In this document: positions 2,384-63,974 of the stretch, in pieces
How the letters are laid out: each line of letters opens with the position of its first letter
Numbering within the stretch: position 1 is the first letter of the stretch
Source of the DNA: an uncultured Gammaproteobacteria bacterium
GTDB taxonomy: Bacteria; Patescibacteriota; Microgenomatia; Daviesbacterales; UBA10151
DNA: 64,000 nt
Direction of reading: 5' to 3'
Assembly: GCA_964392925.1 (NCBI GenBank)
Contig: CAYMRP010000003.1
Span: forward strand, 50,786-114,785
Made by a program: the position numbers and the translations under genes
Notes under the pieces: generated by a model
Told to the model about the DNA's origin: nothing
The model's input: only the letters and a program-made list of their open reading frames with translations
Databases searched by the model: none

Positions 2384-2491
2384 AACTCCCAAGCATAAGC
2401 AGTAATTATAAAGCTGCGTCCAAATAAATTTCTTCTTTAGCAGAGTGAGCTATATCACATAAAATTTCTCAAGACTAGGTATAGTAAAGCT

Positions 2492-3054: not shown

Positions 3055-3059
3055 TTAAA

Positions 3060-3539: not shown

Positions 3540-3661
3540 CTCGAGAATTGTAGCAAAGAATTTTAGAATCAGAGTGATTGGTGTCACATCTTTTTTGCTT
3601 TTAACGCTCTACTTTGCAAATAATAATTAATAAATAACCAACAAAGGAGTAAACTATATTA

Positions 3662-14039: not shown

Positions 14040-14258
14040 ACTATAATTATGTACTGACTGTGAAGGAATCGGTTGGGATTCTGGAGTCAATTAGGCTATC
14101 TTTTAAGAATGTCTAATACAGAGACGAAACTGAAAAGACTGTAGCGGATGTTGGAAATCAAAGTCCGTCAAGAATAAGTATTAATATCAAGGTGGCACCG
14201 CCAATTTGTTGGCCCTTGTTTGTTCATCAGATTTTGGTGAATGAGCAAGGGCTTTTTG
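14040..14258 (+). promoter_or_regulatory. Candidate T-box riboswitch leader (Trp-specific) with terminator, upstream of trpE
   Basis: AAGGTGGCACCGCC (14189-14202) matches the T-box core GGUGGNACCGC, with the UGGC bulge expected for tRNA-Trp discriminator G. Terminator GCCCTTG…CAAGGGC + TTTTTG (14212-14258) sits directly before trpE ATG 14271. A possible UGG specifier lies at about 14082. Confidence 0.45.
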
Positions 14259-14270
14259 TTTGGAGAAAAT

Positions 14271-15650: not shown

Positions 15651-16240
15651 AAGTACTAATAGTTGATAATTACGATTCATTTACATATAACCTTTATCAG
15701 TTGGTAGGGGAGATTTTGGAGAAAGAAAATAAAAATTTTAGACTTGATGTTTTTCGTAATAATGAAATTACAACTTCGGAAATCGAAAAAGCTGGTTATG
15801 AAAAAATTATTATTTCCCCGGGTCCAGGGGATCCGTCTGATAAAAATTATTTTGGGATTTGTGGTGATGTTTTAATATCTTTAGGAAAAACAATTCCGGT
15901 TTTAGGAATTTGTTTAGGAATGCAGGGACTCGGATATTATTACGGAGCGAAAGTATCTGCGGCCTCTAAAGTAATGCATGGTAAAACATCGATAATAAAT
16001 CATTCTGGCAAAGGGTTGTTTCAAAACTTGCCTCAAGATTTGGAGGTAATGAGATACCACTCACTGATTGTAGAAAGAAGAGATTTGCCTAATGATTTGG
16101 AAATTCTAGCGACAAGTGAAGATGGGGAAATAATGGGCTTGCAGCACAAAAAATATCCAGTATCCGGTGTGCAGTTTCATCCTGAATCTTTTGCAACAGA
16201 AGGGGGGAAGCAGATTATTAAAAACTTCCTGTTTAACTAA
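15647..16240 (+). CDS. trpG: Anthranilate synthase component II (glutamine amidotransferase)
   Basis: Class I GATase with catalytic GICLGMQ Cys and HPES His. ATGA overlap with trpE. Confidence 0.9.
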   Translation: MKVLIVDNYDSFTYNLYQLVGEILEKENKNFRLDVFRNNEITTSEIEKAGYEKIIISPGPGDPSDKNYFGICGDVLISLGKTIPVLGICLGMQGLGYYYGAKVSAASKVMHGKTSIINHSGKGLFQNLPQDLEVMRYHSLIVERRDLPNDLEILATSEDGEIMGLQHKKYPVSGVQFHPESFATEGGKQIIKNFLFN

Positions 16241-16241
16241 G

Positions 16242-17255
16242 ATGACTATTAAAGATTTCGCTAAATTACTAAAGAGTAAAAAAGATTTGAGTGAGAATCA
16301 GGCTAAAGATTTGCTGGGTTTATTGATGGACAATGATACGAATGACGAGCAAATTGCGGAGATTCTAATTTTACTTTCTGAGAAAGGTGAGTCTATTTCT
16401 GAGATAACAGGTTTTATAAAAGGAATGAGAGAGTTAATGGTGGAGATTGAAAGTTCACCAGAGACGATTGATATTGTGGGAACTGGAGGAGATGGTTCGA
16501 ATTCATTCAATATTTCGACTGTTTCAGCAATTGTGGCTGCGAGCTGCGGAGCTGTGGTTGCTAAGCATGGAAATAGAGCGGCATCTTCTCTTTGCGGGAG
16601 TGCGGATGTTTTAGAAGAGTTGGGGGTGAATATAAATTTAAATTCTAAGACGGCGGAGGAGGTTTTGAGAAAATACGGAATGGTATTTTTGTTTGCAAGG
16701 GTTTTTCATCCGGCGATGAAAAAAGTAGGCCCTGTTCGAAAGGAATTAAAGAGACGAACAATTTTTAATTACTTAGGTCCTTTTTTGAATCCCGCAAAAG
16801 TTAGGAGAATGCTTTTAGGGGCGGCTAATATGATACTGGCGCGAAAACTATTAGAGATTGCTAAGCAGTTGGAATATGAGCATGTGCTTATTGTGACAAG
16901 TGATGATGGATTGGACGAAATAAGTATTGCCAGTAAGACAACAGTTTTGGAATTAAAGAATGGGGTTAGTAAAGAATTTATTATTGATCCGCAGAAGTTA
17001 GGTTTTGGGGTATTTAAGAAAAGCGATTTGATTGGCGGGGATCCTGCTAGAAACGGACAAATTGTTAGGGATATTTTGGACGGAAAAGAGCAAGGGGCGA
17101 AAAGGGAATCAGTAGTTCTAAATAGCGCCTACGCTTTACTTGTTTCGGGTCGAGTATCAAATGTTTCAGATGGAATTAAAATGTCGAGGGAAGCAATTGA
17201 TTCAAGAAAATCATTTGAACTATTAAAAAAATTAAGGAGGGTGACTAATGAATGA
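16242..17255 (+). CDS. trpD: Anthranilate phosphoribosyltransferase
   Basis: GTGGDGSNSFNIST glycine-rich loop and KHGNRAASS motif. Start taken at MTIKDF, immediately after the trpG stop. Confidence 0.9.
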   Translation: MTIKDFAKLLKSKKDLSENQAKDLLGLLMDNDTNDEQIAEILILLSEKGESISEITGFIKGMRELMVEIESSPETIDIVGTGGDGSNSFNISTVSAIVAASCGAVVAKHGNRAASSLCGSADVLEELGVNINLNSKTAEEVLRKYGMVFLFARVFHPAMKKVGPVRKELKRRTIFNYLGPFLNPAKVRRMLLGAANMILARKLLEIAKQLEYEHVLIVTSDDGLDEISIASKTTVLELKNGVSKEFIIDPQKLGFGVFKKSDLIGGDPARNGQIVRDILDGKEQGAKRESVVLNSAYALLVSGRVSNVSDGIKMSREAIDSRKSFELLKKLRRVTNE

Positions 17256-18048
17256 AATGTTGAAGAAAATAGTTGAAGCGAATAGAGAAGATTTGAACTT
17301 ACGAAAAAAAGAGATTTCGCAAAAAGAGTTGGAAGAGAAATTATTTGGAATTACTAAATGTTTAGATTTTAGAAAAGTTTTTGAAACTGAGTTTGGAATT
17401 ATCGCAGAGATAAAACTAGCTTCACCATCAACTGGCGATTTAATAATGCCCGGGCAAATTTTACAAATTGTTGAAGATTACAAAAAAGGCGGGGCTAAGG
17501 CTATATCGGTCGTTACAGAGAAGCATTTTTTTAAAGGCGATATAAAACTTATAAAAGAAGTAAAACAGAAAACGGGGCTTCTTATTTTGCAAAAGGATTT
17601 TGTTGTTGATAGATATCAAATTCTTGAAGCCCGGATTGCGGGAGCAGATGCATTACTATTAATTGCAAAGATTTTAGATCCAGAGCAAATTAAGGAATTT
17701 GTGGAATTATGTTTTGAGTTGGGGATTGAACCGGTGGTAGAGATATATGATGAAGAAGATTTGATTAAAGCTCAGAATACTAAGACCCGGATTATCGCTG
17801 TTAATGCAAGGGACCTGAATACTTTTGAAATTAATATTGACAGAGCTTGTGAACTGATAAATAAGATTCCAGAAGATTTTTTGAGGTTGGGGTTTTCAGG
17901 GGTTAATACGAAAGAGGAGATTTTAAAGTATAAAAAGGCAGGAGCTAGAGGAGTTCTGATAGGGAGTAGTTTGATTAAGGCTTTGGATAGAGTAAAATTT
18001 TTGGAGGAATTAAGTGATTTTGCATCCACTGGAGATAAGAATGATTAA
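17248..18048 (+). CDS. trpC: Indole-3-glycerol phosphate synthase
   Basis: IAEIKLASPSTGDL…AISVVTEKHFFKGD…LILQKDFVVD…IAVNARDL is the typical IGPS TIM-barrel. 8-nt overlap with trpD. Confidence 0.9.
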   Translation: MNEMLKKIVEANREDLNLRKKEISQKELEEKLFGITKCLDFRKVFETEFGIIAEIKLASPSTGDLIMPGQILQIVEDYKKGGAKAISVVTEKHFFKGDIKLIKEVKQKTGLLILQKDFVVDRYQILEARIAGADALLLIAKILDPEQIKEFVELCFELGIEPVVEIYDEEDLIKAQNTKTRIIAVNARDLNTFEINIDRACELINKIPEDFLRLGFSGVNTKEEILKYKKAGARGVLIGSSLIKALDRVKFLEELSDFASTGDKND

Positions 18049-18649
18049 TGTCAAAATTTGCGGTATAAGATCGGATATGGCGGCCAAGACCGCGGTTTAT
18101 TCAGGAGCAAAATTTTTAGGATTTAATTTTGCGTCCGGATCAAAGCGGAGAATAACGCCAGTGTTTGCCAAGCAGATAATTGATCAAATTAAAAATCAAG
18201 TTAATGTGGTTGGGGTATTTCAAAACCAGAAAGCAGAAGAAGTTAATAAAATTGCGGAGATGCTTGATTTAGATTATGTCCAACTTCATGGTGATGAGGA
18301 TGAGGAATATGTCAAAGAGATAGAAAGGCCTGTTATAAAAGTTTTGCAACTTGATCCGGATTTTAATATAACTACGGTTTTAAAAGAAATGAATAAATAT
18401 CAAGCCGAATATTTTTTATTGGATCGCAAAAAGCAAGGAAAAGGTAAAATGCTGGATACGAAAAGCCTAAGTGTTGTTTGTAAGGAGAAAAAAATATTTG
18501 TGGCCGGAGGATTAACTTGTGAGAATGTGGCTAATGTTATTAGCTCTGTAAATCCATTTGGGGTTGATGTGGCATCGGGAATTGAGACGAATCGAATAGA
18601 AGACACAGAGAAAATAAAATTATTTATGGAAAGGGCAAAAGGAGCATAG
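18041..18649 (+). CDS. trpF: Phosphoribosylanthranilate isomerase
   Basis: MINVKICGI N-terminus and …VQLHGDE…FVAGGL… Overlaps trpC by 8 nt. Confidence 0.85.
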   Translation: MINVKICGIRSDMAAKTAVYSGAKFLGFNFASGSKRRITPVFAKQIIDQIKNQVNVVGVFQNQKAEEVNKIAEMLDLDYVQLHGDEDEEYVKEIERPVIKVLQLDPDFNITTVLKEMNKYQAEYFLLDRKKQGKGKMLDTKSLSVVCKEKKIFVAGGLTCENVANVISSVNPFGVDVASGIETNRIEDTEKIKLFMERAKGA

Positions 18650-18685
18650 GAGAGTAGGTATTTTCTCGCTGCACTCGAAAAATAT

Positions 18686-19912
18686 ATGATGAAAAGGGGA
18701 AAGTTTGGACAATATGGTGGGCGGTATGTACCGGAGATGTTGATTCCGGCGCTTGAAGAATTGGAAACGGCTTATGATGAGGCGAAAAAAGATCCGGAAT
18801 TTAAGAATGAATTTCTGGACTTATTAAAGAACTTTTGTGGACGGCCAACACCGCTCACATATGCTGCAAATTTAACTAAGCTGTTAGGGGGAGCAAAAAT
18901 TTATTTAAAGAATGAAGGACTCAATCATACAGGAGCTCATAAAATAACTCATTGTGTTGGTCAGGGACTACTAGCTAAAAGAATGGGTAAGACAAGGATA
19001 ATTGCGGAAACTGGGGCTGGGCAGCATGGTTTGGCATCGGCGACTGTGGCGGCCAAACTGGGAATGAAATGTACTGTTTTTATGGGTGAAGTGGATTATA
19101 ACAGGCAGAGGCCAAATGCTTTTTGGATGGAACAACTAGGAGCTGAAGTAGTACCTGTTAAATTTGGATCAAGAACTTTGAAAGATGCTGTTAATGCAGC
19201 GATTAAAGACTGGATTGAAAATGTTGATGATTCTTATTATCTTTTGGGATCGGTTGTTGGGCCGCATCCTTATCCGACAATGACTCGGGATTTTCAAGCT
19301 ATTGTTTCAAAAGAAGTTAAAGAGCAAATACAAAAATTTGAGGATAGGTTACCAGATGTGGTGATAGCTTGTGTTGGCGGAGGCAGTAACGCAATGGGGA
19401 TTTTTTCAGGATTTCTAAGTGATAAAAATATAAGATTGATTGGAGTTGAAGCAGGTGGAAAAGGGAAAGGAATAGGCAATAACGCTGTCAGATTTGAGGG
19501 AGGAACTGTGGGGATTGTTGAAGGATATAAATCCTATTTTCTTCAGGACTCAGATGGACAGTTAAATAGAACTCATTCAATTTCGGCAGGGCTTGATTAC
19601 GCAGGTATAGGGCCGGAGTTAGCTGATTTGCATGATAAAAAACGGGTTGAGTTTGTTTCTGTGACAGATAAAGAAGTGATAGAAGCTTTTCAAACATTGG
19701 CACATTCGGAAGGGATCATTCCGGCTTTAGAATCAGCACATGCTGTGGCTCAGGCTATAAAAATTGCTCCAACTTTAAAAAAATCACAAGTGATTGTGGT
19801 GAACTTATCAGGTCGAGGAGATAAGGATTTATTTATAGTGGCTAAAGCAATGAAGGATAAGAAATTTAAGAAGTTTTTAGAGGAGTATTTGGGAGGTTAC
19901 GATCAGGATTAG
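18686..19912 (+). CDS. trpB: Tryptophan synthase beta chain
   Basis: PLP Lys motif LNHTGAHKITH, and GGGSNAMG. Confidence 0.95.
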   Translation: MMKRGKFGQYGGRYVPEMLIPALEELETAYDEAKKDPEFKNEFLDLLKNFCGRPTPLTYAANLTKLLGGAKIYLKNEGLNHTGAHKITHCVGQGLLAKRMGKTRIIAETGAGQHGLASATVAAKLGMKCTVFMGEVDYNRQRPNAFWMEQLGAEVVPVKFGSRTLKDAVNAAIKDWIENVDDSYYLLGSVVGPHPYPTMTRDFQAIVSKEVKEQIQKFEDRLPDVVIACVGGGSNAMGIFSGFLSDKNIRLIGVEAGGKGKGIGNNAVRFEGGTVGIVEGYKSYFLQDSDGQLNRTHSISAGLDYAGIGPELADLHDKKRVEFVSVTDKEVIEAFQTLAHSEGIIPALESAHAVAQAIKIAPTLKKSQVIVVNLSGRGDKDLFIVAKAMKDKKFKKFLEEYLGGYDQD

Positions 19913-19945
19913 GCGGTATTTTCTCGGCTTGCTCGAAAAGTATTT

Positions 19946-20680
19946 ATGAAATTGATGACACATGTAGTGGTGGGATACCCATCACTTAAAGAGACAGAGG
20001 ATTTAATTTTGCTAATGGATGAGGTTGGAGTAGATTATATAGAACTACAAATTCCATTCTCAGATCCGTTGGCCGATGGGCCGACAATTATGAAGGCCTG
20101 TGAAGAGTCTCTAAGAAATGGGACCAAAGTTGCTGATGCGTTTTTACTGGCATCAAAATTGAAGACTAAAACTAAAACCCCACTTTTATTTATGGCTTAT
20201 TTTAATACCGTCTTTCACTACGGCATTCAGAAGTTTTGTAAAGATGCAAAACGCGCCGGAATTGCCGGACTAATTGTGCCGGATTTTCCCCTTGAAGAGG
20301 AAGAAACAGAGCACTTTAATCAAATTCTAAAGCAGAATGGGCTATTAAATATAAAAGTATTGTCTCCTGCTTCAACAGAGGAGCGGATAAAAATGAATGC
20401 GGAAGTGGGGACCGGATTTGTATATTGCACAGCAAGGCAAGGAATCACCGGAGCCGAGAAAGGATTTGATCCGAAAGTGATTAAGTATCTAAAAACTGTT
20501 AAAAAACATTTTAAAATTCCGGTAGCATTAGGGTTTGGGATTTCAACTAAAGGACATATATCACAGATGGAAGGATTGGCTGATGTGGCAGTTGTTGGGA
20601 GCGCGATATTGGATATCATTAATTCGAATAGAAAAGAATATTTAAATAAAGTAAGAGACTTTTTGAAGGATCTGAGATAA
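19946..20680 (+). CDS. trpA: Tryptophan synthase alpha chain
   Basis: YIELQIPFSDPLADGPTI catalytic region and GFGIS. Confidence 0.9.
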   Translation: MKLMTHVVVGYPSLKETEDLILLMDEVGVDYIELQIPFSDPLADGPTIMKACEESLRNGTKVADAFLLASKLKTKTKTPLLFMAYFNTVFHYGIQKFCKDAKRAGIAGLIVPDFPLEEEETEHFNQILKQNGLLNIKVLSPASTEERIKMNAEVGTGFVYCTARQGITGAEKGFDPKVIKYLKTVKKHFKIPVALGFGISTKGHISQMEGLADVAVVGSAILDIINSNRKEYLNKVRDFLKDLR

Positions 20681-20695
20681 AATGAGGAAGATTAT

Positions 20696-21691
20696 ATGAA
20701 GAAAACAGTTTTGTCAGGAATAAGAGCTACAGGAAGATTGCATTTAGGTAACTATTTAGGGGCAGTTAAGGGAATGCTGGAGTTACAAGATAATCCAGAA
20801 TATGAAACATTCTATATGGTGGCGGATGTGCACACTATAACTACGCCATATAATATTGAGGAACTAAAGGTTAATAGACGGGAAGTTATTTTAGATTATC
20901 TGGCGGCAGGTCTTGATCCGGAAAGATCAGTTATATTCCAACAGGCAGAAGTTCCTGAGCATCTAGAGTTAGCATTTTATTTTTCATCGGCGGTAACTAT
21001 TGCGCGTATGCAACATTTACCGACATTTAAAGAAAAAGTTAAACAATATCCAGATAACGCGACGATGGCGCTTTTGAACTATCCAATATTAATGGCAGCT
21101 GATATTTTGATTTATAAAGCAGGACTGGTGCCTGTTGGAATCGATCAGGAGCCGCATTTGGAAGTTGCAAGGGTAATTGCAAATAATATGAATAATCTTT
21201 ATGGAACTGATTTTCCAGAACCGGTTAGGTTTGCCACAAAAGGAGAGTATGTGCCTTCTTTGACTGGTGAAGGGAAGATGAGTAAAACTGTAGAGGGAAG
21301 CTTTATAAATATTACGGATGATCTTGAGGTGATTAGAACAAAAGTTGCTAAATTACCAACAGATGCAGGGTCTGGGGTTTTAGGTGAGAATGGACCGGAA
21401 AAAGGAAGTCCTTTGCAGACAGTTTTGGCGTTTGTGGAATTGTTTCAGGGCAAGGAGAAGGCAGAGTTTTATAAAAAAATGTATATTAATGAAGGGATTA
21501 GATACGGTGACTTAAAAAGGGAGTTATCTGAGGCTATTTTTGACGAATTAAGACCACTACAGGAAAAAAGAAAAGAGCTTGAGAATAATCCTGAGTTTGT
21601 TGATAAGGTGATAAAAGAAGGGGCTGAAAAAGCGAGGGTTGTGGCGAGTAAGACATTAAGAGAAGTTAAGGAAAGAATGGGACTCACATAG
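20696..21691 (+). CDS. trpS: Tryptophanyl-tRNA synthetase
   Basis: Class I HIGH-region TGRLHLGNYLG, KMSKT, AADIL. 331 aa, typical bacterial TrpRS length. Confidence 0.9.
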   Translation: MKKTVLSGIRATGRLHLGNYLGAVKGMLELQDNPEYETFYMVADVHTITTPYNIEELKVNRREVILDYLAAGLDPERSVIFQQAEVPEHLELAFYFSSAVTIARMQHLPTFKEKVKQYPDNATMALLNYPILMAADILIYKAGLVPVGIDQEPHLEVARVIANNMNNLYGTDFPEPVRFATKGEYVPSLTGEGKMSKTVEGSFINITDDLEVIRTKVAKLPTDAGSGVLGENGPEKGSPLQTVLAFVELFQGKEKAEFYKKMYINEGIRYGDLKRELSEAIFDELRPLQEKRKELENNPEFVDKVIKEGAEKARVVASKTLREVKERMGLT

Positions 21692-46776: not shown

Positions 46777-47973
46777 ATGATTCTATATGAATTTGAAGGA
46801 AAAAAGTTATTAATAGATGCCGGAATTGCAGTTCCCTCCTCGCAACTTATTAGCTCACTAGATGAGGAAGTTTCTTTACAATATCCGCTTGTTTTGAAGG
46901 CGCAAGTTTTATCAGGAAAAAGGGCGGATGCCGGTGGAATATTATTTGCTGAAAATGAAGAAGAGTATAGAAATGGGATTAAGAGGCTCTTGGACTCAGT
47001 TATAAATAAAGAAAAAGTAGAACAGGTTTTAGTTGAGGAGAAGGCAGAAATTGAGAAAGAGTATTATGTTTCAATTTCTTATAACACAGAAACCCGCGGA
47101 GCTGTTTTAACTTTATCTGAATCTGGGGGAACCGGTATCGAGGACAGAGAAGCAAATACGTATAAAGTATCAAGTGTTAAGTATCAAGCCGGCGAGGAAG
47201 CAGTTAAGTTTGATGAACTGGGCAAATTAGAGGGAGTAGATGGAGAGGTTATTAATGATTTAATTAAAATGTTTTTTGATCAGGATTGTTCGCTTTTGGA
47301 AGTTAATCCATTAGTTAAAACCAGATCAGGGGAGTGGATGGCTTTGGACGCAAAAGTAAAATTAGATGACTTTGCAAAACCGAGACACAAGGATGAGTGG
47401 GATTATTCTCCGAGATCAGCTCCAGGTCATACGCCTACCAGAGGCGAAATTGAAGCTAAAAAAATAGATGAAGGTGATTATAGAGGGACTGCTGGTTCTT
47501 CATATTTTGATATTGAGGGTGGTGATATCGCGGTTTTGTCATCCGGAGGGGGTGTTTCTTTGACAGCTTTGGATTCTCTAATTAATTACGGAGGAAAGCC
47601 AGCTAATTTTACTGAATATTCTGGGAATCCACCAAAAGAGAAGGTAGCAAAGCTAACTAAAGTTGTCCTAGATAAGCCTAATATTCATGGCCTTTGGGTT
47701 ATTGGGACTGTTGTTGCGAACTTTACTGATATTTACGAGACGCTATCGGGATTTATTGAAGGATTAAAAGAAACGGAAAAGTTACTGGGCAGGAAATTTG
47801 ATTTTCCAATTGTTATCCGCAGAGGAGGTCCTAGAGTAGAGGAGGCTTATGAGATGTTGAAGAACGTAAAAGAGTTTGATTTTCATTTGCAGGCTGGGGA
47901 GACTTCTATAGCGCAATCGGCGAAGACTATGGCAGAGCTTGCTAAGGAGTATGAATTAAGAATTAAGGGCTAA
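46777..47973 (+). CDS. ATP-grasp subunit, succinyl-CoA synthetase beta / ATP-citrate lyase small-subunit (AclB/CcsA)-like
   Basis: MILYEFEGKKLLIDAGIAVP N-terminus (SucC-like). 398 aa. Followed by an alpha-like subunit and a citrate-synthase-like gene. Confidence 0.7.
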   Translation: MILYEFEGKKLLIDAGIAVPSSQLISSLDEEVSLQYPLVLKAQVLSGKRADAGGILFAENEEEYRNGIKRLLDSVINKEKVEQVLVEEKAEIEKEYYVSISYNTETRGAVLTLSESGGTGIEDREANTYKVSSVKYQAGEEAVKFDELGKLEGVDGEVINDLIKMFFDQDCSLLEVNPLVKTRSGEWMALDAKVKLDDFAKPRHKDEWDYSPRSAPGHTPTRGEIEAKKIDEGDYRGTAGSSYFDIEGGDIAVLSSGGGVSLTALDSLINYGGKPANFTEYSGNPPKEKVAKLTKVVLDKPNIHGLWVIGTVVANFTDIYETLSGFIEGLKETEKLLGRKFDFPIVIRRGGPRVEEAYEMLKNVKEFDFHLQAGETSIAQSAKTMAELAKEYELRIKG

Positions 47974-47978
47974 GTATT

Positions 47979-48881
47979 ATGGGAAATAGATTATTAAAAA
48001 AGGATGCTAAATTAATAGGACAAGGGTTAACGGGGACTGAGGGGGCGAGGGCTTTGCCTAGGATGACTTCTTACGGCACAAAAATCGTGGCCGGAGTGAC
48101 ACCTGGCAAAGGTGGGCAGGAAGTGGAAGGGGTGCCGATATTTAACTCAGTTAAAGAGGCTGTTGAAGCAGTTGGGCCAGTCGATGGTACGGTTCAATTT
48201 GTCCCTCCGTTATTTGTTAAAGGAGCTGTTAAAGAAGCGATTGAGGCCGGATTAAAATTTATTTTAATCAGTGCGGAGAAAGTCCCAACTTCTGATGAGG
48301 CGTATATGTATGAACTAGCTGAGAATAATGGGGCGAGTATTATTGGTCCAAATTCGGTGGGACTTTTAAGTACTCATAATAGAATTAGATTAGGGTTAAT
48401 CGGGGGTTCTGATCCAGAGAAAGTATTTATGCCGGGGGAAATTGCGATTGTCTCTAAATCCGGATCAATGACGGCAGAGATTGGGCTTCATTTAAAAAAT
48501 AATGGTTTAGGAACATCATGGGCTGTTGGGATAGGCGGGGATATTGTGGAAGGAACTGATTTTGCGGATTTTTTACTTGAACTTGAGGATGATGCAAATA
48601 CGAAAGCCTCGGTCATTTTTGGAGAATTAGGGGGAACATATGAAGAGAAAGTGGGGGATTTAGTTAAAGCAGGCAAAATTACAAAACCTGTTGTGGCTTT
48701 GATCGCTGGAGACTTCACTATGAAATTACCTAATGAGGTTCAGTTTGGTCATGCAGGTGCTATTATTGAAGGAGAGAGAGGACTTCCTGACTATAAGCGG
48801 AAATTCTTACGAGAAGCGGGAGTGAAAGTGGCAAACTCGATTGATGAAATTGCGGAGCTTTTGAAGCAGTCTTTAAAATAA
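47979..48881 (+). CDS. CoA-binding subunit, succinyl-CoA synthetase alpha / AclA N-terminal (CcsB)-like, with phospho-His motif
   Basis: CoA-binding Rossmann (GLTGTEG…) and the conserved catalytic-His loop VQFGHAGAIIEG. Confidence 0.75.
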   Translation: MGNRLLKKDAKLIGQGLTGTEGARALPRMTSYGTKIVAGVTPGKGGQEVEGVPIFNSVKEAVEAVGPVDGTVQFVPPLFVKGAVKEAIEAGLKFILISAEKVPTSDEAYMYELAENNGASIIGPNSVGLLSTHNRIRLGLIGGSDPEKVFMPGEIAIVSKSGSMTAEIGLHLKNNGLGTSWAVGIGGDIVEGTDFADFLLELEDDANTKASVIFGELGGTYEEKVGDLVKAGKITKPVVALIAGDFTMKLPNEVQFGHAGAIIEGERGLPDYKRKFLREAGVKVANSIDEIAELLKQSLK

Positions 48882-50994: not shown

Positions 50995-52758
50995 ATGTTA
51001 GAAATCCTTTACAATCCAGTCATGACATTTAAAAAACTGGCGGAGTATTTTGAGAAATTAGAAGAGACTTCTTCGCGATTATCCTTAATTGATATATTAT
51101 CGGAACTTTTTTCTGAGGTTTCTCCTGATGAGGTGCCGATGGTTTCTTATTTAATACAAGGAAGAGTAGCCCCTTTTTATGAGCCTGTTGAAATTGGAAT
51201 GGCGGAAAAGAATGTGGCGGCATCGATTGCTAGAGCATATGGTGTTGATAGAGAAGAGGTTTTAACACTATATGGAAAAGTTGGAGATTTAGGAAAGGCT
51301 GCTTTGGAACTGAGCCAGAAGAAAAATCACAAAAGCCAGAGCCTAACAATTAAAGAAGTCTTTGAGACGCTAAAGGAAATTGCAGGATTTTCAGGAGACG
51401 GGACTGTTGAAAAGAAAATCTCAACTTTGGTGGGATTGCTGGAAAAAGCTAGCGGAATAGAAGCCAAGCACTTAGTTAGGATTCCAATCGGAACATCACG
51501 CCTGGGGATTGGTGATCCGACTGTTTTAGATGCCTTTGCTAAGGCTAAATTGGGCGATCGATCAAAGAGGAAGCTCTTAGAGGGGGCATACAACAAAGTG
51601 TCTGATTTAGGACTTATTGGAAAGACTTTGTGGGAGGGCGGGCTTCCAGCAGTTCAAAAGCTGGATGTAGAGTTTGGAAGACCTATTAGAAGTCAGCTTT
51701 GCGAAAGATTGCCTGACCCGAAATCAATTTTGGAAAAATATGGAGGAGATGCTCATGTGCAATATAAATACGACGGTTTTAGGATTCAGATACATAAAAA
51801 GGGAAAACAAGTAAGATTATTTTCGCGTAATTTAGAGGAAACAACGCCAATGTTTCCAGATATTATCGAAGGTGTTTTAAAACAAATTAAAGCTGATTCG
51901 ATAATATTGGATTCAGAAGGATTGGCGTATAACCCGGAGTCAGAGGAATTTTTGCCGTTTCAGGAAACTACGAAAAGAAGAAGAAGACACGGAATTGAGG
52001 ATGCGGCAAAAACTTTACCACTCAAAGCATTTGTTTTTGACATCATGTATATCAACGGAAAATCTTTAGTTGACACCCCGTTATCTGAGAGATTGCAAAT
52101 TATGGCAAAAGCGATCGATGGAGATGAGGTTTTAATTGAACAGCCAGGAATATTTATGAATGATGCTGCTAAGATGGATGCAATGCTGCAGGATGCACTG
52201 ACTAAAGGGTTAGAGGGGTTAATTGTTAAAAGGCCTGATTCTTTGTATGAGGCTGGGGCGCGTAATTTTAACTGGATTAAATTAAAGCGTCATTCCTCGG
52301 GCGAACTTAAAGACACGATTGATTGTGTAATTTTGGGATATATTTTTGGTAGAGGGAAACGGGCTGATTTTGGGGCAGGGGCATTATTAGTTGGGGTTTA
52401 TGATAAGGAAAAAGATGAATTTGTGACTGTTTCTAAAATAGGGACTGGGTTAACAGATGAAGAGTGGAGGGAGATTCATAGACGGGCAGATAAGATTAAG
52501 GTTGATCATAAACCGGCAAGAGTGAATGCAGTCATGGAACCTTCAGTTTGGATTAAGCCGGAAATTGTGATTGAAGTTTTAGCAGATGAGATTACAAAAT
52601 CTCCAACTCATACGGCAGGTAAAACGGATACGGAGCCTGGATATGCTTTACGATTTCCAAGACTGGTTAAGTTTAGAGATGCGGATAAAAGAGCTGAGGA
52701 TAGTACGACTGTTTCAGAGCTGGTAAAAATGTATAGCGCTCAGTATTCGAAAAAGTAG
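50995..52758 (+). CDS. ATP-dependent DNA ligase (Lig1/archaeal-type: DNA-binding + adenylation + OB domains)
   Basis: Motif I KYDGFR (Lys adenylation), motif III, motif IV EGLIVK, motif V, OB domain. N-terminal DBD (…FEKLEETSSRLSLIDILSELF). An alternative ATG at 51022 sits 7 nt after a TACAAT box, suggesting a leaderless start. Confidence 0.85.
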   Translation: MLEILYNPVMTFKKLAEYFEKLEETSSRLSLIDILSELFSEVSPDEVPMVSYLIQGRVAPFYEPVEIGMAEKNVAASIARAYGVDREEVLTLYGKVGDLGKAALELSQKKNHKSQSLTIKEVFETLKEIAGFSGDGTVEKKISTLVGLLEKASGIEAKHLVRIPIGTSRLGIGDPTVLDAFAKAKLGDRSKRKLLEGAYNKVSDLGLIGKTLWEGGLPAVQKLDVEFGRPIRSQLCERLPDPKSILEKYGGDAHVQYKYDGFRIQIHKKGKQVRLFSRNLEETTPMFPDIIEGVLKQIKADSIILDSEGLAYNPESEEFLPFQETTKRRRRHGIEDAAKTLPLKAFVFDIMYINGKSLVDTPLSERLQIMAKAIDGDEVLIEQPGIFMNDAAKMDAMLQDALTKGLEGLIVKRPDSLYEAGARNFNWIKLKRHSSGELKDTIDCVILGYIFGRGKRADFGAGALLVGVYDKEKDEFVTVSKIGTGLTDEEWREIHRRADKIKVDHKPARVNAVMEPSVWIKPEIVIEVLADEITKSPTHTAGKTDTEPGYALRFPRLVKFRDADKRAEDSTTVSELVKMYSAQYSKK

Positions 52759-58173: not shown

Positions 58174-58965
58174 ATGGAGTTACTAATATATATTTTAGTT
58201 TTTACATTTTTAGGCAGTATTGCTTCATTGGTAGGAGGGATTTTTTTGCTGTCAAAAAAAGAACTGGTTGGTAAGATTTCGCATTATTTGTTTTCATTTG
58301 CGGCTGGAGTTTTATTGGGTACGGCTTTTTTTGATCTGCTTCCCGAGGCATTTGCTGAGATTGAACATTTAGCTGAAGAAGGAATTATTGTAGAGACAAA
58401 TATATTTCTTTGGACATTTTTAGGAATTATTGGCTTCTTCTTTTTAGTTAGATTTTTGCACTGGTTTCATCATCATGACGATCATTTTAAAGATGAGCCA
58501 AAACAGACAGTGTCGCTTATTGTAGTCGGAGATACTGTACATAATTTTATAGATGGAATGATAATTGCGGCTTCATTTTTTGTAAGTATTCCGCTGGGTA
58601 TTCTTACAGCTATTGCGGTGGCAATTCATGAGATACCACAAGAGATAGGAGATTTTGCAATTTTAATTAAGAGAGGTCTGCCTAGGAAAAAAATCATTCA
58701 GATTAATTTGATAAGTGCGGCGGCAGCAATGGTAGGAGCGATGCTGGTGTTTATTTTAGGAGAATCAGTCAAGGCTATGCTGCCGATGTTTTTGGCACTG
58801 ACTGCAGGATTCTTTATCTACATAGCGACGGCCGATTTAATCCCTGAGATTCATAAAGAAGATAACCAAAAGGTGGCTTTCATGGAAGCTTTACTACTCG
58901 TAATTGGAGCGCTTACTGTTTATGGTTTGGCAATAATTTTAGAAAGCGCGAATCTTCATGGATAG
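58174..58965 (+). CDS. ZIP-family divalent metal transporter (ZupT-like)
   Basis: HNFIDGMIIAASF and HEIPQEIGDFAIL metal-binding TM motifs. Confidence 0.75.
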   Translation: MELLIYILVFTFLGSIASLVGGIFLLSKKELVGKISHYLFSFAAGVLLGTAFFDLLPEAFAEIEHLAEEGIIVETNIFLWTFLGIIGFFFLVRFLHWFHHHDDHFKDEPKQTVSLIVVGDTVHNFIDGMIIAASFFVSIPLGILTAIAVAIHEIPQEIGDFAILIKRGLPRKKIIQINLISAAAAMVGAMLVFILGESVKAMLPMFLALTAGFFIYIATADLIPEIHKEDNQKVAFMEALLLVIGALTVYGLAIILESANLHG

Positions 58966-59512
58966 TAAAAAAAATTTAAATTCTGATAATCAGATAATAT
59001 CGGCGGTTGATAGTGCAGGTAACTTTATTCGTTATATTTCGAAGGAAGATGGACATACAGGTGAAGGCATTCATCATTTAGCAATTACAGTTTTTATTTT
59101 TAATTCAAAAGGGGAGCTACTTTTACAAAAAAGGAAACATAAGGTATTTGATAATTTTTGGGATAACACAGCGTCAACTCATCAGCTGCATTTGGAAAAT
59201 GGCCATGACGAGAGTGACAAGGAGGCAACTTTACGAACACTGAAAAGAGAGTATGGGATAGAGAATGTTGAACTTGAGAATTTGGGAGGATTTAATTATT
59301 TCGAGAAAATTGGTGGGCTTTGTGAGAATGAGTTTTGCAAATTGTTGATTGGAATTTATGATGGTGAAGTAAATTTAAATCCTGAGGTTGGATATTCGTA
59401 TAAGTGGATTTCAAAAAAAGATTTTATGAGAGAGCTTGAGGAGATACCTGGGGAATATACACCATGGTGTAAAGCAGCAGTAAAGATTCTTCATGATAAA
59501 GGTATTTTGTAA
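58958..59512 (+). CDS. Isopentenyl-diphosphate isomerase type 1-like NUDIX protein, Cys67-to-Ser variant (paralog A)
   Basis: Aligns to E. coli Idi: His ligands kept (IHHLAIT, STH). ENE (Glu114/116), Tyr and Trp161 equivalents present. WTNSVCGHP is WDNTASTHQ here. Confidence 0.55.
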   Translation: MDSKKNLNSDNQIISAVDSAGNFIRYISKEDGHTGEGIHHLAITVFIFNSKGELLLQKRKHKVFDNFWDNTASTHQLHLENGHDESDKEATLRTLKREYGIENVELENLGGFNYFEKIGGLCENEFCKLLIGIYDGEVNLNPEVGYSYKWISKKDFMRELEEIPGEYTPWCKAAVKILHDKGIL

Positions 59513-60051
59513 TGGATCTTGAAGAGGAGTTGGTTGATATTGTTGATGAGCGAAATATTGTTATCGGGCAATCTTCCAGAAGAGAAGCGCATGCTAGAGG
59601 GCATATTCACCGGGCGCTATCCGTATTAGTTTTAAATTCTAAAGGCGAGATATTACTTCAAAAGAGATCTGCTAATAAATCGGTCCATCCCATGTCTTGG
59701 GATTTATCAACCTCAGAGCATGTGTTGAGTGGAGAGAGTTATGAAGATGCGGGATTTAGATCTGTAAAAGAAGAACTCGGTGTTGAGGCAGTTGTAACAA
59801 AAGCTACGGAAATAACTTTGCAGAAAAGGAAATATCAGGTTAAGGGGGAGACGGTTTTTGAGAATGAAATTGTTCTGATGTTAAGGGCGATTCATGACGG
59901 TCCTTTTGAAATAGATCCAGAAGAGGTTAATGAAGTTAAATTTTTTAAAGTGGAAGAAATTGAGCAGATGGTAAAAGGCGGTGAAGACTTCACTACTTGG
60001 TTTTTGGACGAATGGCTGAATGTAAAAAAAGTAGTTAGTTCAATCACATAG
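59512..60051 (+). CDS. IDI-1-like NUDIX protein, also Cys-to-Ser (paralog B)
   Basis: HRALSVLVLNSKGEILLQKR…WDLSTSEHV…ENEIV. Same substitution pattern as paralog A. 1-nt overlap (TAATG). Confidence 0.5.
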   Translation: MDLEEELVDIVDERNIVIGQSSRREAHARGHIHRALSVLVLNSKGEILLQKRSANKSVHPMSWDLSTSEHVLSGESYEDAGFRSVKEELGVEAVVTKATEITLQKRKYQVKGETVFENEIVLMLRAIHDGPFEIDPEEVNEVKFFKVEEIEQMVKGGEDFTTWFLDEWLNVKKVVSSIT

Positions 60052-60300
60052 CTCAATCCGGCTGACGGGAAACGTTAACTCCGGATAAGTGGCTGATTTG
60101 GCGATGCTAGTTGGTATCGATCGAGTAACCTCCAGGTTCCGTTCCGGTAGTTGATCGGGGCGAAGTAAAAATGAGGCTAATTTTGGTACTTCGAATCCTC
60201 TAATTGTAACTTCTCCTGAATCTGAGACGGTAAAGCGGCGGTGTCTCTTTACTATTCTTGATTGAGAAGGAGAGGTGTCGATTTCAGGACTTATTGCCAT
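60040..60300 (-). CDS. Possible small ORF (86 aa) translationally coupled to the MVD-like gene; coding status uncertain
   Basis: Its ATG overlaps the MVD-like TGA (ATGA). No domain. The region is locally GC-elevated and may instead be a structured 3' UTR. Confidence 0.2.
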   Translation of the reverse strand: MAISPEIDTSPSQSRIVKRHRRFTVSDSGEVTIRGFEVPKLASFLLRPDQLPERNLEVTRSIPTSIAKSATYPELTFPVSRIELCD

Positions 60301-61277
60301 CAGAAAAGATGTGTCTTGGACAATCTTACTCCGTCTCCTGGATAATTTACAATAATGTTTTTGACTTCCGAGAGCTCCTTTAAGTTTGCTTTTAAACTTT
60401 CAACATGGTTCTTTTCAACAATTAAATGGACATCCTGGCCGGTGTTGACTGTGAAATAAACAGGAATTCCCTCTTCGCGCCATTTTTTGCAGAGCTTCAT
60501 TAATAAAAGTGAATTGGGCATAAGGTAGATTAAGGCTGGTTTTTGGGTAATATAAATCGAGTGGAGTTCGAGAGCTTCTGATTCAATTAGTTCGCCGAAT
60601 TCTTTAAAGTTTTTTTCTGTTATTAATTTCTTAAGTAGTTCGTTTTTAGCTTTCATTCCTTCTACTCTAATGTTCATGAAAGGGGAGGTGTTGGCTCCTT
60701 CATGGGCATCTGAAGTTGAGATTTCTTTTCTGCCTTCTGAAACAACTGCTACGACATCTGCGATCTCCCAATGGTCTTTTTCAAATATAGTTTTAGCATA
60801 GGAGGTTTCAGAAGTGTCGCCATCTAACCATTCTACAATTCCTGCAGGAATTGAGCGGCAGGCTGATCCGGAGCCTTGTCTGGCAAGTATTGATAATTCT
60901 GATTCAGATAATTCAAGACCAGCAGCATTTGATCCGGCTACTGTTAGGGCTGCAAATCCTGAAGCGGAAGAAGAGAGGCCGGTTCCGGTGGGGAAAGAAT
61001 TTTTTGAAACTACTTTAGCGAAAGTATTTATACCGGCAATTTTTCTAATTCTGTCTAAATGTTTTATAACTTTTGCGGCTTCTTTTTCTCTTTTTTCGTC
61101 ATTTATAGTTATATCATCGGCGGTTAAGTTTTCGTCAAATTCTACAGTGGTGGTAGTTAAAAGATTTGATAAGGACATGGAGATGCTGCCGTTCATCGGC
61201 AGTCTTAAGGTTTCGTCTTTGCGGCCCCAATATTTGGTGAAGGCAATATTGGATGGAGCTATAGCTGTTGATTTCAT
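60300..61277 (-). CDS. Diphosphomevalonate decarboxylase-family protein (MVD/PMD/M3K-like) with non-canonical catalytic-Asp region
   Basis: N-terminal APSNIAFTKYWGRKD, and GSGSACRS. Where MVDs have (Y)FT(M)DAGPN, this protein has VYFTVNTGQDV (Asp->Asn in my alignment). Confidence 0.65.
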   Translation of the reverse strand: MKSTAIAPSNIAFTKYWGRKDETLRLPMNGSISMSLSNLLTTTTVEFDENLTADDITINDEKREKEAAKVIKHLDRIRKIAGINTFAKVVSKNSFPTGTGLSSSASGFAALTVAGSNAAGLELSESELSILARQGSGSACRSIPAGIVEWLDGDTSETSYAKTIFEKDHWEIADVVAVVSEGRKEISTSDAHEGANTSPFMNIRVEGMKAKNELLKKLITEKNFKEFGELIESEALELHSIYITQKPALIYLMPNSLLLMKLCKKWREEGIPVYFTVNTGQDVHLIVEKNHVESLKANLKELSEVKNIIVNYPGDGVRLSKTHLF

Positions 61278-61771
61278 ATTAGGAATCCGTATTCTTTAAG
61301 AGTTATTTTAGATGATTCTGAGAGATCTTCAAAGACTTCTTTTAATTCTTCCCGAGTAAAGAATCTTAGTTCGTCAGTTTCTTCGGGATTAAATTTAAAA
61401 GGGCCATTTGACTGAAGAGTGTAAAGCTTAGTCATTGTTTTGTGAGCAGGATCATCTATTATCATTCTTTTGAGAAAGGCAGGTTTGGCGCTGAGTCTTA
61501 ACTCTTCAAGGATTTCTCTTTCTGCGGCTTCGTCATAGGTTTCTTCTTCACCGACATGTCCGCCTACTGCATTCGACCATTTTCCTGGGTTACTATCTTT
61601 TTTGACACTTCTTTTTTGAAGCATCACTTGTCCTTTCTCGTTAAATACTAAAACTGAAATAGTCCTATGAAGCAGTTTCTTGGTATGGGCTTCCTTTCTG
61701 GGCATGTAATTCATGACGTAATCGTTTTCGTCAACAACAATTACTAATTCTTCGGGATCTGTGTAATTCAT
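61274..61771 (-). CDS. NUDIX hydrolase, IDI-like (paralog C; Cys position is Gly)
   Basis: HRTISVLVFNEKGQVMLQKR…WSNAVGGHVGEEETYDEAAEREILEE is a NUDIX box embedded in an IDI-like N-terminal layout. ATGA overlap with the MVD-like gene. Confidence 0.5.
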   Translation of the reverse strand: MNYTDPEELVIVVDENDYVMNYMPRKEAHTKKLLHRTISVLVFNEKGQVMLQKRSVKKDSNPGKWSNAVGGHVGEEETYDEAAEREILEELRLSAKPAFLKRMIIDDPAHKTMTKLYTLQSNGPFKFNPEETDELRFFTREELKEVFEDLSESSKITLKEYGFLI

Positions 61772-62754
61772 TGCTCAAGTCTAACTCCATCTGTATTTAC
61801 TTCAACTTTTAAAACTTGGCCGCCGGCGTTTTGAATTGCTTGCTGAACTGCCTTGATTCTATTTTCGGGAGCAAGAGCAATCATACAATCGCCGCCGCCG
61901 GCACCCGATAATTTGGCACCAAAAGCTCCGGCATTTCGAACTGCATTGATAATTGAGGAGAGTTTATTGGTGGAAACTCCCAATTGTTCAAGCAGTGTTT
62001 GATTCGAATTCATTAATTCGCCGAGTTTTTTCAGATCATTATGAGCAAAAGCCGCTTTTGCTTCTTCAACAATTTCTTCCATGTTGTTATAAATTTCGTT
62101 TAACTCTGCTTGTTTATTCTCGAAGCGGGCTTTGACTTCTTTGACTATTGTGGCGGTATCGGCTTTGACTCCGGTGTAGCCAACAATGAGTGGTAGATGG
62201 CTAATAGCTAATGGTTGAATGGTTTTGCCGCCGGCTACAAAGTATAAAGTTTCGCCGTATATTGCGGCTGCTAAATCAAAGCCAGATCCTAATCCCTGGA
62301 CATCCAATACCGTTTGATAAGCAAGGTCAAAAATTTCTTTCTGAGTTAGTTCTGGTTTAAATATTTCTGCCAATGCTTTGACCGTACAAACTGCGGATGC
62401 AGAAGAGGAGCCAAAGCCAAAAGTAGACTTAAATTGGGCAACAGTTTCTAATTGAATTCCAGCATGTGGGGGGATAGCAGCGGCGTATTTTTCAAAGAAA
62501 TTTTTAGTTGCGAATTCGACAAATTTTGCACCTTTTGGAATTTCGTCTTCTCCGAGATGAGACATCAGTTTATTGTAATTTTTAATATCAACGTCGGGGG
62601 CATTTAATTTAAAAACTGGTTCATCGTTATAGGAAGCGGTTAGAGAGAGCCTTTGATTTACGGAAGTTACAATACATGGCTTACCGTAAACAACGGCATG
62701 TTCACCAAAAAGCATTAATTTTCCGGGAGCTGAAACTGTAATCTTTTTGTCCAT
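61768..62754 (-). CDS. GHMP kinase, mevalonate-kinase-like paralog (candidate phosphomevalonate kinase or variant)
   Basis: SAPGKLMLFGEHAVVYGKP (MVK motif 1), GFGSSSA (motif 2), GSGFDLAAA (catalytic Asp), KLSGAGGGDC (motif 3). Not ERG8-type. Confidence 0.6.
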   Translation of the reverse strand: MDKKITVSAPGKLMLFGEHAVVYGKPCIVTSVNQRLSLTASYNDEPVFKLNAPDVDIKNYNKLMSHLGEDEIPKGAKFVEFATKNFFEKYAAAIPPHAGIQLETVAQFKSTFGFGSSSASAVCTVKALAEIFKPELTQKEIFDLAYQTVLDVQGLGSGFDLAAAIYGETLYFVAGGKTIQPLAISHLPLIVGYTGVKADTATIVKEVKARFENKQAELNEIYNNMEEIVEEAKAAFAHNDLKKLGELMNSNQTLLEQLGVSTNKLSSIINAVRNAGAFGAKLSGAGGGDCMIALAPENRIKAVQQAIQNAGGQVLKVEVNTDGVRLEQ

Positions 62755-62755
62755 A

Positions 62756-63700
62756 TTAAATAATTCCTGTTTCTGAAATCTGAACTGAATAGTACTTTAA
62801 ATTATTTTCCTTGGCAAATTCTATAAGTATATTTATGTTTTTATGAAAGGCTAAAATCATTCCTGATCCTTTTTTAATTCCTCCAGCTCCAGTTATTTTA
62901 GCGGCTCCTTTTAAGTTCTCGATTTTTGTAATGATATCACGGGTTGTTTCACTAACGACTCCCAAACTTTCTAAATTAGATTCCGATTGTTTAATAATTT
63001 TAAATAATTGAGACTCAGTATTGTTTAATAATGCGTCTTTTAATTGATGTGCTAGAGCTTCCTGACTGTTGATAATTTTATTAAATAAATGTTTGTTTTG
63101 TTTAGCAAAATTTGAAACATGTTCCACCATGTCAGATGTTTTTTCAAGAGGCTTGCCTGAATCGATCAATAGAAATTTTAAAGCAGATTTAGTAGAGATT
63201 CTAGAATAGTCCTCACCTTTTCTAAACCAAATAAGTCCACCATAGACAATTATAGTGTTATCTCCGCCAGAGGGATTTCCTTGAAATATTTTTTCACCCT
63301 CATAAACTAATTGATTTAGTGTTTCGAGGTCACAATTAACATTCAAAAATTTTAGCAGAGCTGAGGTGAAGACTGCGCAAAAAGCGGCGGAGGATCCAAG
63401 GCCTGAACCGATTGGAAGATCATTGTTAAATTTGATTGTGTAGTTTGGAATTGAGGAAAGAGCGAATTTTTTGGTGATTAATTTTTCTAGATTGATTTGG
63501 AATTTTTCGATTGCATCATCATGCTGAATTATGCCAAGGATTTGTTTTTTTTCTGATGAATAGATTCTACCTGTAAATCTTAAATTTATTGCAGCGAGGA
63601 TAGCAGGTTTGCCATAAACGACGCTGTGTTCGCCGATCAGGTGAATTTTTCCGGGGGCTGAAACTTTAATAATATTAGAGGGGTTTGAATTTGATTCCAT
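62756..63700 (-). CDS. Mevalonate kinase-like GHMP kinase
   Basis: KVSAPGKIHLIGEHSVVYGKP, GSGLGSSAA, SGGDNTI (catalytic Asp), KITGAGG. Start taken at MESNSNPSNII. The track ORF extends to 63745 and would overlap the next gene by 71 nt. Confidence 0.7.
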   Translation of the reverse strand: MESNSNPSNIIKVSAPGKIHLIGEHSVVYGKPAILAAINLRFTGRIYSSEKKQILGIIQHDDAIEKFQINLEKLITKKFALSSIPNYTIKFNNDLPIGSGLGSSAAFCAVFTSALLKFLNVNCDLETLNQLVYEGEKIFQGNPSGGDNTIIVYGGLIWFRKGEDYSRISTKSALKFLLIDSGKPLEKTSDMVEHVSNFAKQNKHLFNKIINSQEALAHQLKDALLNNTESQLFKIIKQSESNLESLGVVSETTRDIITKIENLKGAAKITGAGGIKKGSGMILAFHKNINILIEFAKENNLKYYSVQISETGII

Positions 63701-63974
63701 ATTCAATGATGTCGGCGGCCTGAGGTTTGCGGGATCTTCTGACAACTGAAATAACTTTAAGTCCGATTTTTAAATCTGATTCTTCGCAGTCAATTATTTG
63801 AGAGGGTACTTTAGTGCCGTTTTCAAGTTCAATTATACCGGCAAAATATGGTGCTTGATACTCAAAACCAGAGGGAGCGGTGAAGATTTTTGTCCATACT
63901 AAAAGCTTACCTTTTTGAGAAAGGTTTTGATTTAATTTCTTAGTATCCCGCCAATGTTTTACTGGACTGCTCAT
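63675..63974 (-). CDS. DUF35 OB-fold protein (thiolase/HMG-CoA-synthase scaffold family), lacking the N-terminal Zn-ribbon
   Basis: GKLLVWTKIFTAPSGFEYQAPYFAGIIELENGTKVPSQIIDCEESDLKIGLKVISVV aligns closely to archaeal DUF35 OB folds (…VYSFTVVHRAPPGFEPPYIVALVELEEGPRVMTNIVDCDPEEVKIGMEVEVVF). Confidence 0.65.
   Translation of the reverse strand: MSSPVKHWRDTKKLNQNLSQKGKLLVWTKIFTAPSGFEYQAPYFAGIIELENGTKVPSQIIDCEESDLKIGLKVISVVRRSRKPQAADIIEYGIKFKPL

Follow-up and report, generated by a model that had tools for sequence, protein, structure and literature searches.

The role of the catalytic aspartate in diphosphomevalonate decarboxylases (DMD, also named MDD or MVD) has been debated for a long time, and three views of the residue have been put forward: a general base for phosphoryl transfer, a group that sets the orientation of the 3'-OH, and a group that stabilises the carbocation while phosphate is lost and decarboxylation takes place. 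Structural work describes a dissociative phosphoryl transfer, in which the Asp orients the 3'-OH and is not an obligatory base, and places the Asp near a second metal, where it may stabilise the carbocation (PMC7414129). For the S. solfataricus DMD, the account of Motoyama et al. (2017) given in PMC9254496 states that the D281N mutant kept decarboxylase activity, and that D281T and D281V lost decarboxylation and became 3-kinases. The present analysis concerns a natural counterpart of the first of these mutants. It is encoded at 60300..61277 on the minus strand of a 64,000-nucleotide stretch, called the window here, of contig CAYMRP010000003.1 (GenBank assembly GCA_964392925.1, positions 50,786 to 114,785 of the forward strand), and it carries an asparagine in the column of the catalytic aspartate.

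The 325-residue product, an Asn-type homolog of diphosphomevalonate decarboxylase, is probably a working enzyme with a remodelled active site, which would serve the classical mevalonate pathway of Microgenomates-group bacteria of the candidate phyla radiation (CPR, also called Patescibacteria). Judged from the sequences, it belongs to a large and conserved group of MVD orthologs, a subfamily whose catalytic loop is non-canonical and which occurs in CPR bacteria and in at least one archaeon. The Asn-type MVD is a natural variant of a known enzyme and not a new system, and no mention of such a variant was found in the literature searched.

Protein identity and fold

Pfam, NCBIfam, HMMER alignments and an AlphaFold2 model were employed to assign the protein. 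It matches the Pfam domains MVD-like_N (PF22700, 193 bits) and MDD_C (PF18376, 52.7 bits), and scores 256.4 bits against the NCBIfam model of diphosphomevalonate decarboxylase (TIGR01240, EC 4.1.1.33), above the cutoff of 171.35. Scores against the models of related enzymes stay below their cutoffs, with 182.5 bits for phosphomevalonate decarboxylase (PMD; NF040704, EC 4.1.1.99; cutoff 475), 38.2 bits for mevalonate-3-kinase (M3K; NF040848, EC 2.7.1.185; cutoff 440) and 63.7 bits for MBD, the decarboxylase of mevalonate 3,5-bisphosphate (NF040847; cutoff 560), the Asp being absent and the phosphate-binding loop (P-loop) intact. A weak match to Pfam M3K_C, of 22.7 bits, is likewise below its cutoff of 27. 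Four motif blocks can be read in the protein: TKYWGRKDE (residues 14-22), PTGTGLSSSAS (96-106), GSGSACRS (135-142) and FTVNTGQDV (275-283). An earlier note on this DNA, written from the sequence alone, had described the KYWGRK and GSGSACRS blocks as intact, and both are present.

The AlphaFold2 model, for which 72 clade sequences were used, is confident along its whole length, with a mean pLDDT of 95.8 and a pTM of 0.93. It superposes on the PMD of A. thermophila (6n0x, 6n0y and 6n0z) with a TM score of 0.95 and a root-mean-square deviation of 1.3-1.5 Å over about 321 columns, and on the solved bacterial and archaeal DMDs with TM scores of 0.89-0.94. The A. thermophila PMD is also the best solved match in sequence, at 42% identity (E 3e-83). 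The window MVD is a full-length, high-confidence protein of the MVD family.

Asparagine at the catalytic column

Codon AAC at 60444..60446 (minus strand) specifies Asn278, which occupies the column of the catalytic Asp (D283 in S. epidermidis, D282 in E. faecalis and D281 in S. solfataricus DMD, D280 in A. thermophila PMD). The surrounding loop FTVNTGQDV (residues 275-283; 60429..60455, minus strand) stands where canonical enzymes have FT(M/I)DAGPNV, so that Thr279, Gln281 and Asp282 take the places of the canonical Ala, Pro and Asn. In HMMER pairwise alignments, FTVNTGQDVH is paired with YTLDAGPNVH of A. thermophila PMD (6n0x) and with FTMDAGPNVK of the E. faecalis and S. aureus MDDs, each time in an ungapped region. 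Asn278 is assigned to the catalytic column because these alignments to solved structures show no gap nearby, and the register is backed at the level of the fold too, since the model superposes nearly full length on 6n0x, 6n0y and 6n0z.

A shifted register, with Asp282 of NTGQD at the catalytic column, was considered and ruled out by the ungapped alignments, the matching flanks with Gly280, and the near-full-length superposition. Asp282 follows the catalytic column at a distance of four residues, and a few clade members have Asn in its place, which also rules it out as the catalytic-column residue. By hand alignment, the earlier note had put an Asn at the Asp position with the Gly conserved, and had raised the possibility of a divergent family member. 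Sequence alignments and fold superposition confirm this placement, the solved structures putting Asn278 and not the D of NTGQD at the catalytic column and the model (TM 0.95 to PMD) agreeing with the hand-made register, and the view of a divergent member is supported. Its remark that Thermoplasma M3K is also without this Asp agrees with what is stated in PMC9254496.

Substitutions that accompany Asn278

A column-by-column comparison of 129 Asn-type and 119 Asp-type sequences revealed a package of co-occurring substitutions. Ser102, Asn278 and Thr279 correlate perfectly with the Asn or Asp type: residue 102 is Ser in all 129 Asn-type sequences and Ala in 116 of the 119 Asp-type sequences, and residue 279 is Thr in the Asn type and Ala in 116/119 of the Asp type. 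The correlation is near-perfect at three more positions, namely residue 188 (Thr in 117/129 Asn-type, Ser in 115/119 Asp-type sequences), residue 281 (Gln in the Asn type, mostly Pro in the Asp type) and residue 282 (Asp in the Asn type; Asn, Gln or His, and never an acidic residue, in the Asp type). Five changes thus accompany Asn278: A102S, S188T, A279T, P281Q and N282D. Ser102 is encoded by TCT at 60972..60974 (minus strand) and lies in the GHMP phosphate-binding loop GL-S-SSAS, two residues before Ser104, the metal and gamma-phosphate serine (E. faecalis S106). Thr188, encoded by ACT at 60714..60716 (minus strand), is the equivalent of E. faecalis S191 and S. epidermidis S192.

In the E. 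faecalis structures, the counterparts of residues 102, 188 and 278-282 line the phosphoryl-transfer site, and S191, the counterpart of Thr188, contacts the diphosphate and later anchors Lys187 (PMC7414129). Ser104, Arg141 (60855..60857, minus strand) and Lys184 (60726..60728, minus strand) are invariant in 129/129 clade members; Arg141, which is invariant in both groups, corresponds to S. epidermidis R144, which binds the substrate carboxylate, and Lys184 to the conserved catalytic loop lysine K187 of E. faecalis (roles per PMC7414129). Tyr16 and the GSGS loop are likewise kept in all clade members. Since the package covaries while all other catalytic residues are invariant, the active site is, as far as the alignment indicates, remodelled under selection and not degraded. 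Asp and Asn have changed places between residues 278 and 282, which suggests an interaction of the two side chains with swapped roles.

Distribution of the asparagine type

All 120 closest homolog clusters, at 66-96% identity, carry FT[IVL]NTGQ[DN][IV]. A search from the divergent member P0129 obtained 113 further clusters, all with P-loops of the GL-S-SSAS type, and N-T-G is present in every one of these whose loop motif can be read, which is all but two. The clusters are distinct protein clusters at 90% identity from many samples, 233 in total. A sequencing or assembly error, or a private mutation, is ruled out by the presence of Asn in every close homolog cluster with a readable motif.

Source names attached to the Asn-type proteins are Ca. 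Daviesbacteria, Ca. Roizmanbacteria and 'Patescibacteria group', and the nearest named relatives of the window gene are Ca. Daviesbacteria. Among GTDB genomes, the Asn type was found in Levyibacteriota and in one genome each of Roizmanbacteria and Microgenomates; DAG is kept in another Roizmanbacteria, in Woesebacteria, Chisholmbacteria and Gottesmanbacteria, and in all sampled Chloroflexi. The best 150 representatives at 50% identity include nine with Asn, and nearly all others have Asp. In four Asp-type representatives of 608-646 aa (P0125, P0127, P0176 and P0264), the MVD domain makes up the C-terminal half of a double-length protein, and these are presumably kinase-decarboxylase fusions. 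Two GTDB records titled 'Gammaproteobacteria' (L002, CAYORA010000041.1) and 'Saccharibacteria' (L007, CAZFMA010000044.1) hold Microgenomates-type Asn-variant operons with 57-62% identity to the query, and their bin labels look doubtful.

With the signature sites removed, bootstrap support in a neighbour-joining tree for a single or a multiple origin of the Asn state did not exceed 34%. At the same sites-removed level, Asn-type representatives are closer by identity to other Asn-type representatives than to any Asp-type one; the exception is P0204, the most divergent Asn-type representative, whose pairwise identities to the two types are tied. These identities are compatible with one origin of the Asn state.

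An Asn-type protein from the cluster of P0129 (P0271, TIGR01240 score 227.8 bits) sits on an archaeal contig (L084; JGI 3300023203, Ga0255812_10726584; 1-20948), which encodes RNA polymerase subunit L, above the NCBIfam cutoff, and AMMECR1. Next to the gene is a kinase that has all its best matches among phosphomevalonate kinases. The cluster also contains a mevalonate kinase and a type 2 isopentenyl diphosphate isomerase (IDI), both above cutoffs, and a prenyl diphosphate synthase that is below cutoff and has its best matches among short-chain and geranylgeranyl diphosphate synthases. The occurrence of an Asn-type MVD on this contig implies a transfer of the variant between CPR bacteria and archaea, probably DPANN.

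Operon and genomic context

The MVD gene is the last of a tightly packed operon on the minus strand of the window. It includes a gene for an OB-fold protein of the ChsH2_C/DUF35 type (63675..63974), which in relatives follows thiolase and HMG-CoA synthase. GHMP kinase 1 (62756..63700, with the ATG start of the public gene call) and GHMP kinase 2 (61768..62754) come next, both mevalonate-kinase-like, the latter being the candidate phosphomevalonate kinase. An IDI-1-like Nudix gene without the IDI catalytic Cys (61274..61771) then overlaps the MVD start with its stop codon (ATGA); all four genes are on the minus strand.

In relatives with longer contigs, the operon starts with HMG-CoA reductase (HMGR), HMG-CoA synthase (HMGS) and thiolase, and it is flanked by undecaprenyl-type and polyprenyl synthases. 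Five Asn-type loci (L001, L004, L007, L082 and L085) have the order HMGR-HMGS-thiolase-OB-GHMP1-GHMP2-MVD followed by prenyltransferases, and the gene order is identical in four Asp-type Microgenomates loci (L005, L006, L008 and L017). The Asn-type protein is therefore a positional ortholog of the canonical decarboxylase, in the same slot of the pathway. A neofunctionalised paralog is ruled out by this shared slot and by the lack of a second MVD homolog in any fetched locus. No gene specific to Asn-type loci is shared among them, and their small downstream open reading frames (ORFs) are mutually unrelated. Among the scanned ORFs of the 64 kb window there is no isopentenyl phosphate kinase (AA_kinase), no gene of the methylerythritol phosphate (MEP) pathway and no second MVD.

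Three IDI-1-like Nudix paralogs lie close to the MVD gene, at 58958-59512 (plus strand), 59512-60051 (plus strand) and 61274-61771 (minus strand), and all score below the NCBIfam IDI cutoffs. Alignment to solved IDIs places Ser or Gly at the position of the E. coli and Salmonella catalytic Cys67 in the second and third, and by reading of its sequence the first is also without the Cys. Given these scores and the replacement of Cys67, what has been assigned to CPR as 'IDI-I' may be something other than a canonical isomerase. An ORF of 86 aa (60040-60300, minus strand) begins at the stop codon of MVD and runs over the last part of the convergent Nudix gene. As it has neither a Pfam match nor a homolog in any fetched locus, it is probably no genuine gene. 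In L082, a 525-aa fusion of an IDI-like Nudix domain with a polyprenyl synthase (1982-3559, minus strand) is divergent from the mevalonate operon. An ATP-dependent DNA ligase of the archaeal/eukaryotic type is encoded near the mevalonate cluster both in the window (50995-52758, plus strand) and in L082 (16062-17831), a 69%-identical relative.

Substrate and flanking kinases

Because the closest solved relative is a PMD, the substrate was checked. Arg19 of the KYWGRK block (61221..61223, minus strand) is at the position of N20, the specificity residue of A. thermophila PMD, and PDB entry 6n0z is the N20K/H194M mutant of this PMD, crystallised with mevalonate diphosphate (MVAPP). Residue 19 is Arg in 98 and Lys in 31 clade members, and thus basic in 129/129, whereas it is Asn in PMD. 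Residue 192, at the H194 position, is His in the window MVD and His, Gln or Met across the clade.

Residue 19 was then compared with the flanking kinases in 80 GTDB loci. All 17 loci with Lys or Arg at this position have one or two flanking GHMP kinases; eleven have two, and most of those with one have cut flanks. When residue 19 is not basic (Asn, Val, Gln, Ala or other), a flanking kinase is missing in 54 of 63 loci, and none of the 63 has two. A basic residue 19 together with two GHMP kinases, which stand directly upstream of MVD in the window and in relatives, favours the diphosphate MVAPP as the likely substrate and the classical two-kinase route, with GHMP kinase 2 as the putative phosphomevalonate kinase. 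Hoshino and Gaucher have assigned the classical pathway to CPR, in agreement with this (PMC6107057). The earlier note had offered a PMD-like enzyme as one option. This stands in so far as the closest solved structure is a PMD; for the substrate, Arg/Lys19 and the two adjacent kinases point to the diphosphate.

Comparison with described enzymes

Like the solved DMDs, for example those of E. faecalis (6e2u), S. epidermidis (3qt5) and S. solfataricus (5gmd), the window MVD has the GHMP fold, a similar length, both Pfam domains, the P-loop, the GSGS loop, Arg141, Lys184 and a basic residue in KYWG(K/R); it passes the curated cutoff, and its operon combines two GHMP kinases with upstream HMG-CoA enzymes. 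Unlike them, it has Asn for Asp in a loop NTGQD for DAGPN, Ser for Ala before the P-loop serines, and Thr for Ser at the N-terminus of alpha-4, and it is without the Arg that Firmicutes DMDs have at the R193 position. The A. thermophila PMD is the best match in both sequence and fold and shares the His at the H194 position, but it has Asp280, the loop Ala and Pro, and Asn20 where the clade has Arg or Lys. PMD loci also lack two adjacent kinases, and the window MVD stays below the NCBIfam PMD cutoff.

The S. solfataricus D281N mutant, which kept its activity in the account cited above, is the laboratory counterpart of the natural Asn278, yet its Asn stands alone in a canonical background, whereas the natural clade adds five co-substitutions. 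The kinase-only mutants D281T and D281V differ from the window MVD, which carries neither Thr nor Val. M3K belongs to the same superfamily and shares the absence of the decarboxylase Asp. The clade profile sets M3K and MBD apart, however, with scores against solved structures of 380 bits for PMD, 237-303 bits for DMDs, 42.9 bits for M3K (4rkp) and 52 bits for MBD, and the gene context of these two enzymes is different as well. MBD needs its Asp and has lost ATP binding, whereas the window MVD keeps the full P-loop.

Proposed mechanism and alternative explanations

MVAPP and MgATP would bind as in canonical enzymes, because Tyr16, Arg/Lys19, Ser104, the GSGS loop, Arg141 and Lys184 are kept. 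An amide is able to orient a hydroxyl and to serve as a ligand of a metal or of water. The amide oxygen of Asn278 would take a hydrogen bond from the 3-OH and orient it for dissociative phosphoryl transfer, and Asp282 would hold and polarise Asn278, the reverse of the canonical Asp...Asn pair. The extra hydroxyls of Ser102 and Thr279 would help to bind the transferred phosphate or a second metal. Ser102, Thr279 and Asp282 would make up for the charge that is lost. Loss of phosphate and CO2 would then yield isopentenyl diphosphate (IPP). Asn stands in place of Asp in this protein and in hundreds of its relatives, so catalysis may not depend on the carboxylate.

Several points weigh against a working decarboxylase of MVAPP. 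Krepkiy and Miziorko reportedly found in 2004 that D302N in the yeast enzyme cuts kcat about 1000-fold. The D309N mutant of P. torridus MBD is inactive, and a paper of 2022 gives the Asp as conserved in all DMD, PMD and MBD enzymes (PMC9254496). The closest solved relative is a PMD and not a DMD, and residue 189 is Ser or Thr, as in A. thermophila PMD, and not Arg as in Firmicutes DMDs. Both window kinases score best as mevalonate kinases, so the choice of one as phosphomevalonate kinase is tentative, and the surroundings examined cover 20-64 kb around the gene. Family, register, conservation, covariation and synteny are shown by the data; the substrate, catalysis by the Asn-type clade, the contact between Asn278 and Asp282 and the roles of Ser102 and Thr279 are predicted.

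A phosphomevalonate decarboxylase with Asn, acting on mevalonate 5-phosphate as in Chloroflexi and haloarchaea and relying on an isopentenyl phosphate kinase elsewhere in the genome, is a fairly unlikely explanation. The similarity to A. thermophila PMD (42% identity, TM 0.95), His192 at the place of PMD H194, and Ser189, nearer to the Thr of PMD than to the Arg of Firmicutes DMDs, speak for it, and isopentenyl phosphate kinase homologs occur in some CPR according to Hoshino and Gaucher (PMC6107057). However, the PMD model gives 182 bits against a cutoff of 475, residue 192 varies within the clade, and neither the scanned window ORFs nor the flanks with precomputed Pfam matches contain an AA_kinase. 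Residue 19 is basic throughout, N20K being half of the PMD mutant crystallised with MVAPP, and a basic residue 19 accompanies two adjacent GHMP kinases where PMD-type loci have none or one. An M3K-like or kinase-only enzyme, which the earlier note had suggested as a possibility, would phosphorylate the 3-OH of MVAPP, or of mevalonate as in Thermoplasma M3K, without decarboxylation; the pathway would be completed by a further enzyme or spontaneously, making a new mevalonate pathway variant of CPR and DPANN. The arguments for it are the absent carboxylate, as in M3K, the S. solfataricus D281T and D281V kinases and the dead P. torridus D309N as related in PMC9254496, the below-cutoff M3K_C match, and six remodelled positions that could reflect changed chemistry. 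The findings do not favour this proposal, which is unlikely: D281N of S. solfataricus kept DMD activity in the same account, and the clade profile gives 43 and 52 bits to M3K and MBD against 237-380 for decarboxylases, next to 38 bits against a cutoff of 440 for the NCBIfam M3K model. The gene is also the positional ortholog of Asp-type MVDs from sister Microgenomates, its classical mevalonate operon being complete in other respects; Asn-type loci have no candidate partner decarboxylase in common, and the M3K route would also need a 3-phosphate 5-kinase and an MBD, neither of which was seen.

The six-position remodelling may conceivably be a real change of chemistry, in which the Asn-type enzymes of CPR and some DPANN go no further than 3-phosphorylation, or rely on another arrangement of the metal or of proton transfer, and IPP is reached through a further unrecognised step; this is quite unlikely. 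A catalytically dead or regulatory relic, or an Asn produced by sequencing or assembly error, is highly improbable. A residue regarded as essential for catalysis is indeed replaced, but the same Asn recurs in every distinct cluster with a readable motif among the 233, the residues that bind ATP and substrate do not vary, the intact ORF shows translational coupling in its operon, the model is confident throughout, and a second MVD was seen in no locus.

Other features of the window

A complete tryptophan operon (trpE, G, D, C, F, B and A), directly followed by tryptophanyl-tRNA synthetase, is located at 14241-21691 on the plus strand and is notable in a reduced CPR genome. A gene pair at 46777-48881 (plus strand), encoding an ATP-grasp and citrate-binding protein and then a CoA-binding/CoA-ligase protein, resembles subunits of ATP-citrate lyase or succinyl-CoA synthetase. 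Over 1-60 kb, where the plus strand carries most genes, GC skew has strongly positive values (+0.1 to +0.38); it falls to about 0.07 at 60-64 kb, the part with the minus-strand mevalonate operon.

Implications

These sequences correct the published claim of a conserved Asp in all DMD, PMD and MBD enzymes, and the signature GLSSSAS plus NTGQ can be used for annotating Asn-type proteins. A large natural clade with an amide in place of the carboxylate, encoded in complete mevalonate operons and clearly under selection, offers ready-made enzymes for a direct test of the role of the Asp, and supplies the presumably compensating changes chosen by evolution as well: Ser102, Thr188, Thr279, Gln281 and Asp282. 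The variant also bears on the functionality of the annotated mevalonate pathway of CPR bacteria, on which scenarios about the antiquity of the pathway depend.

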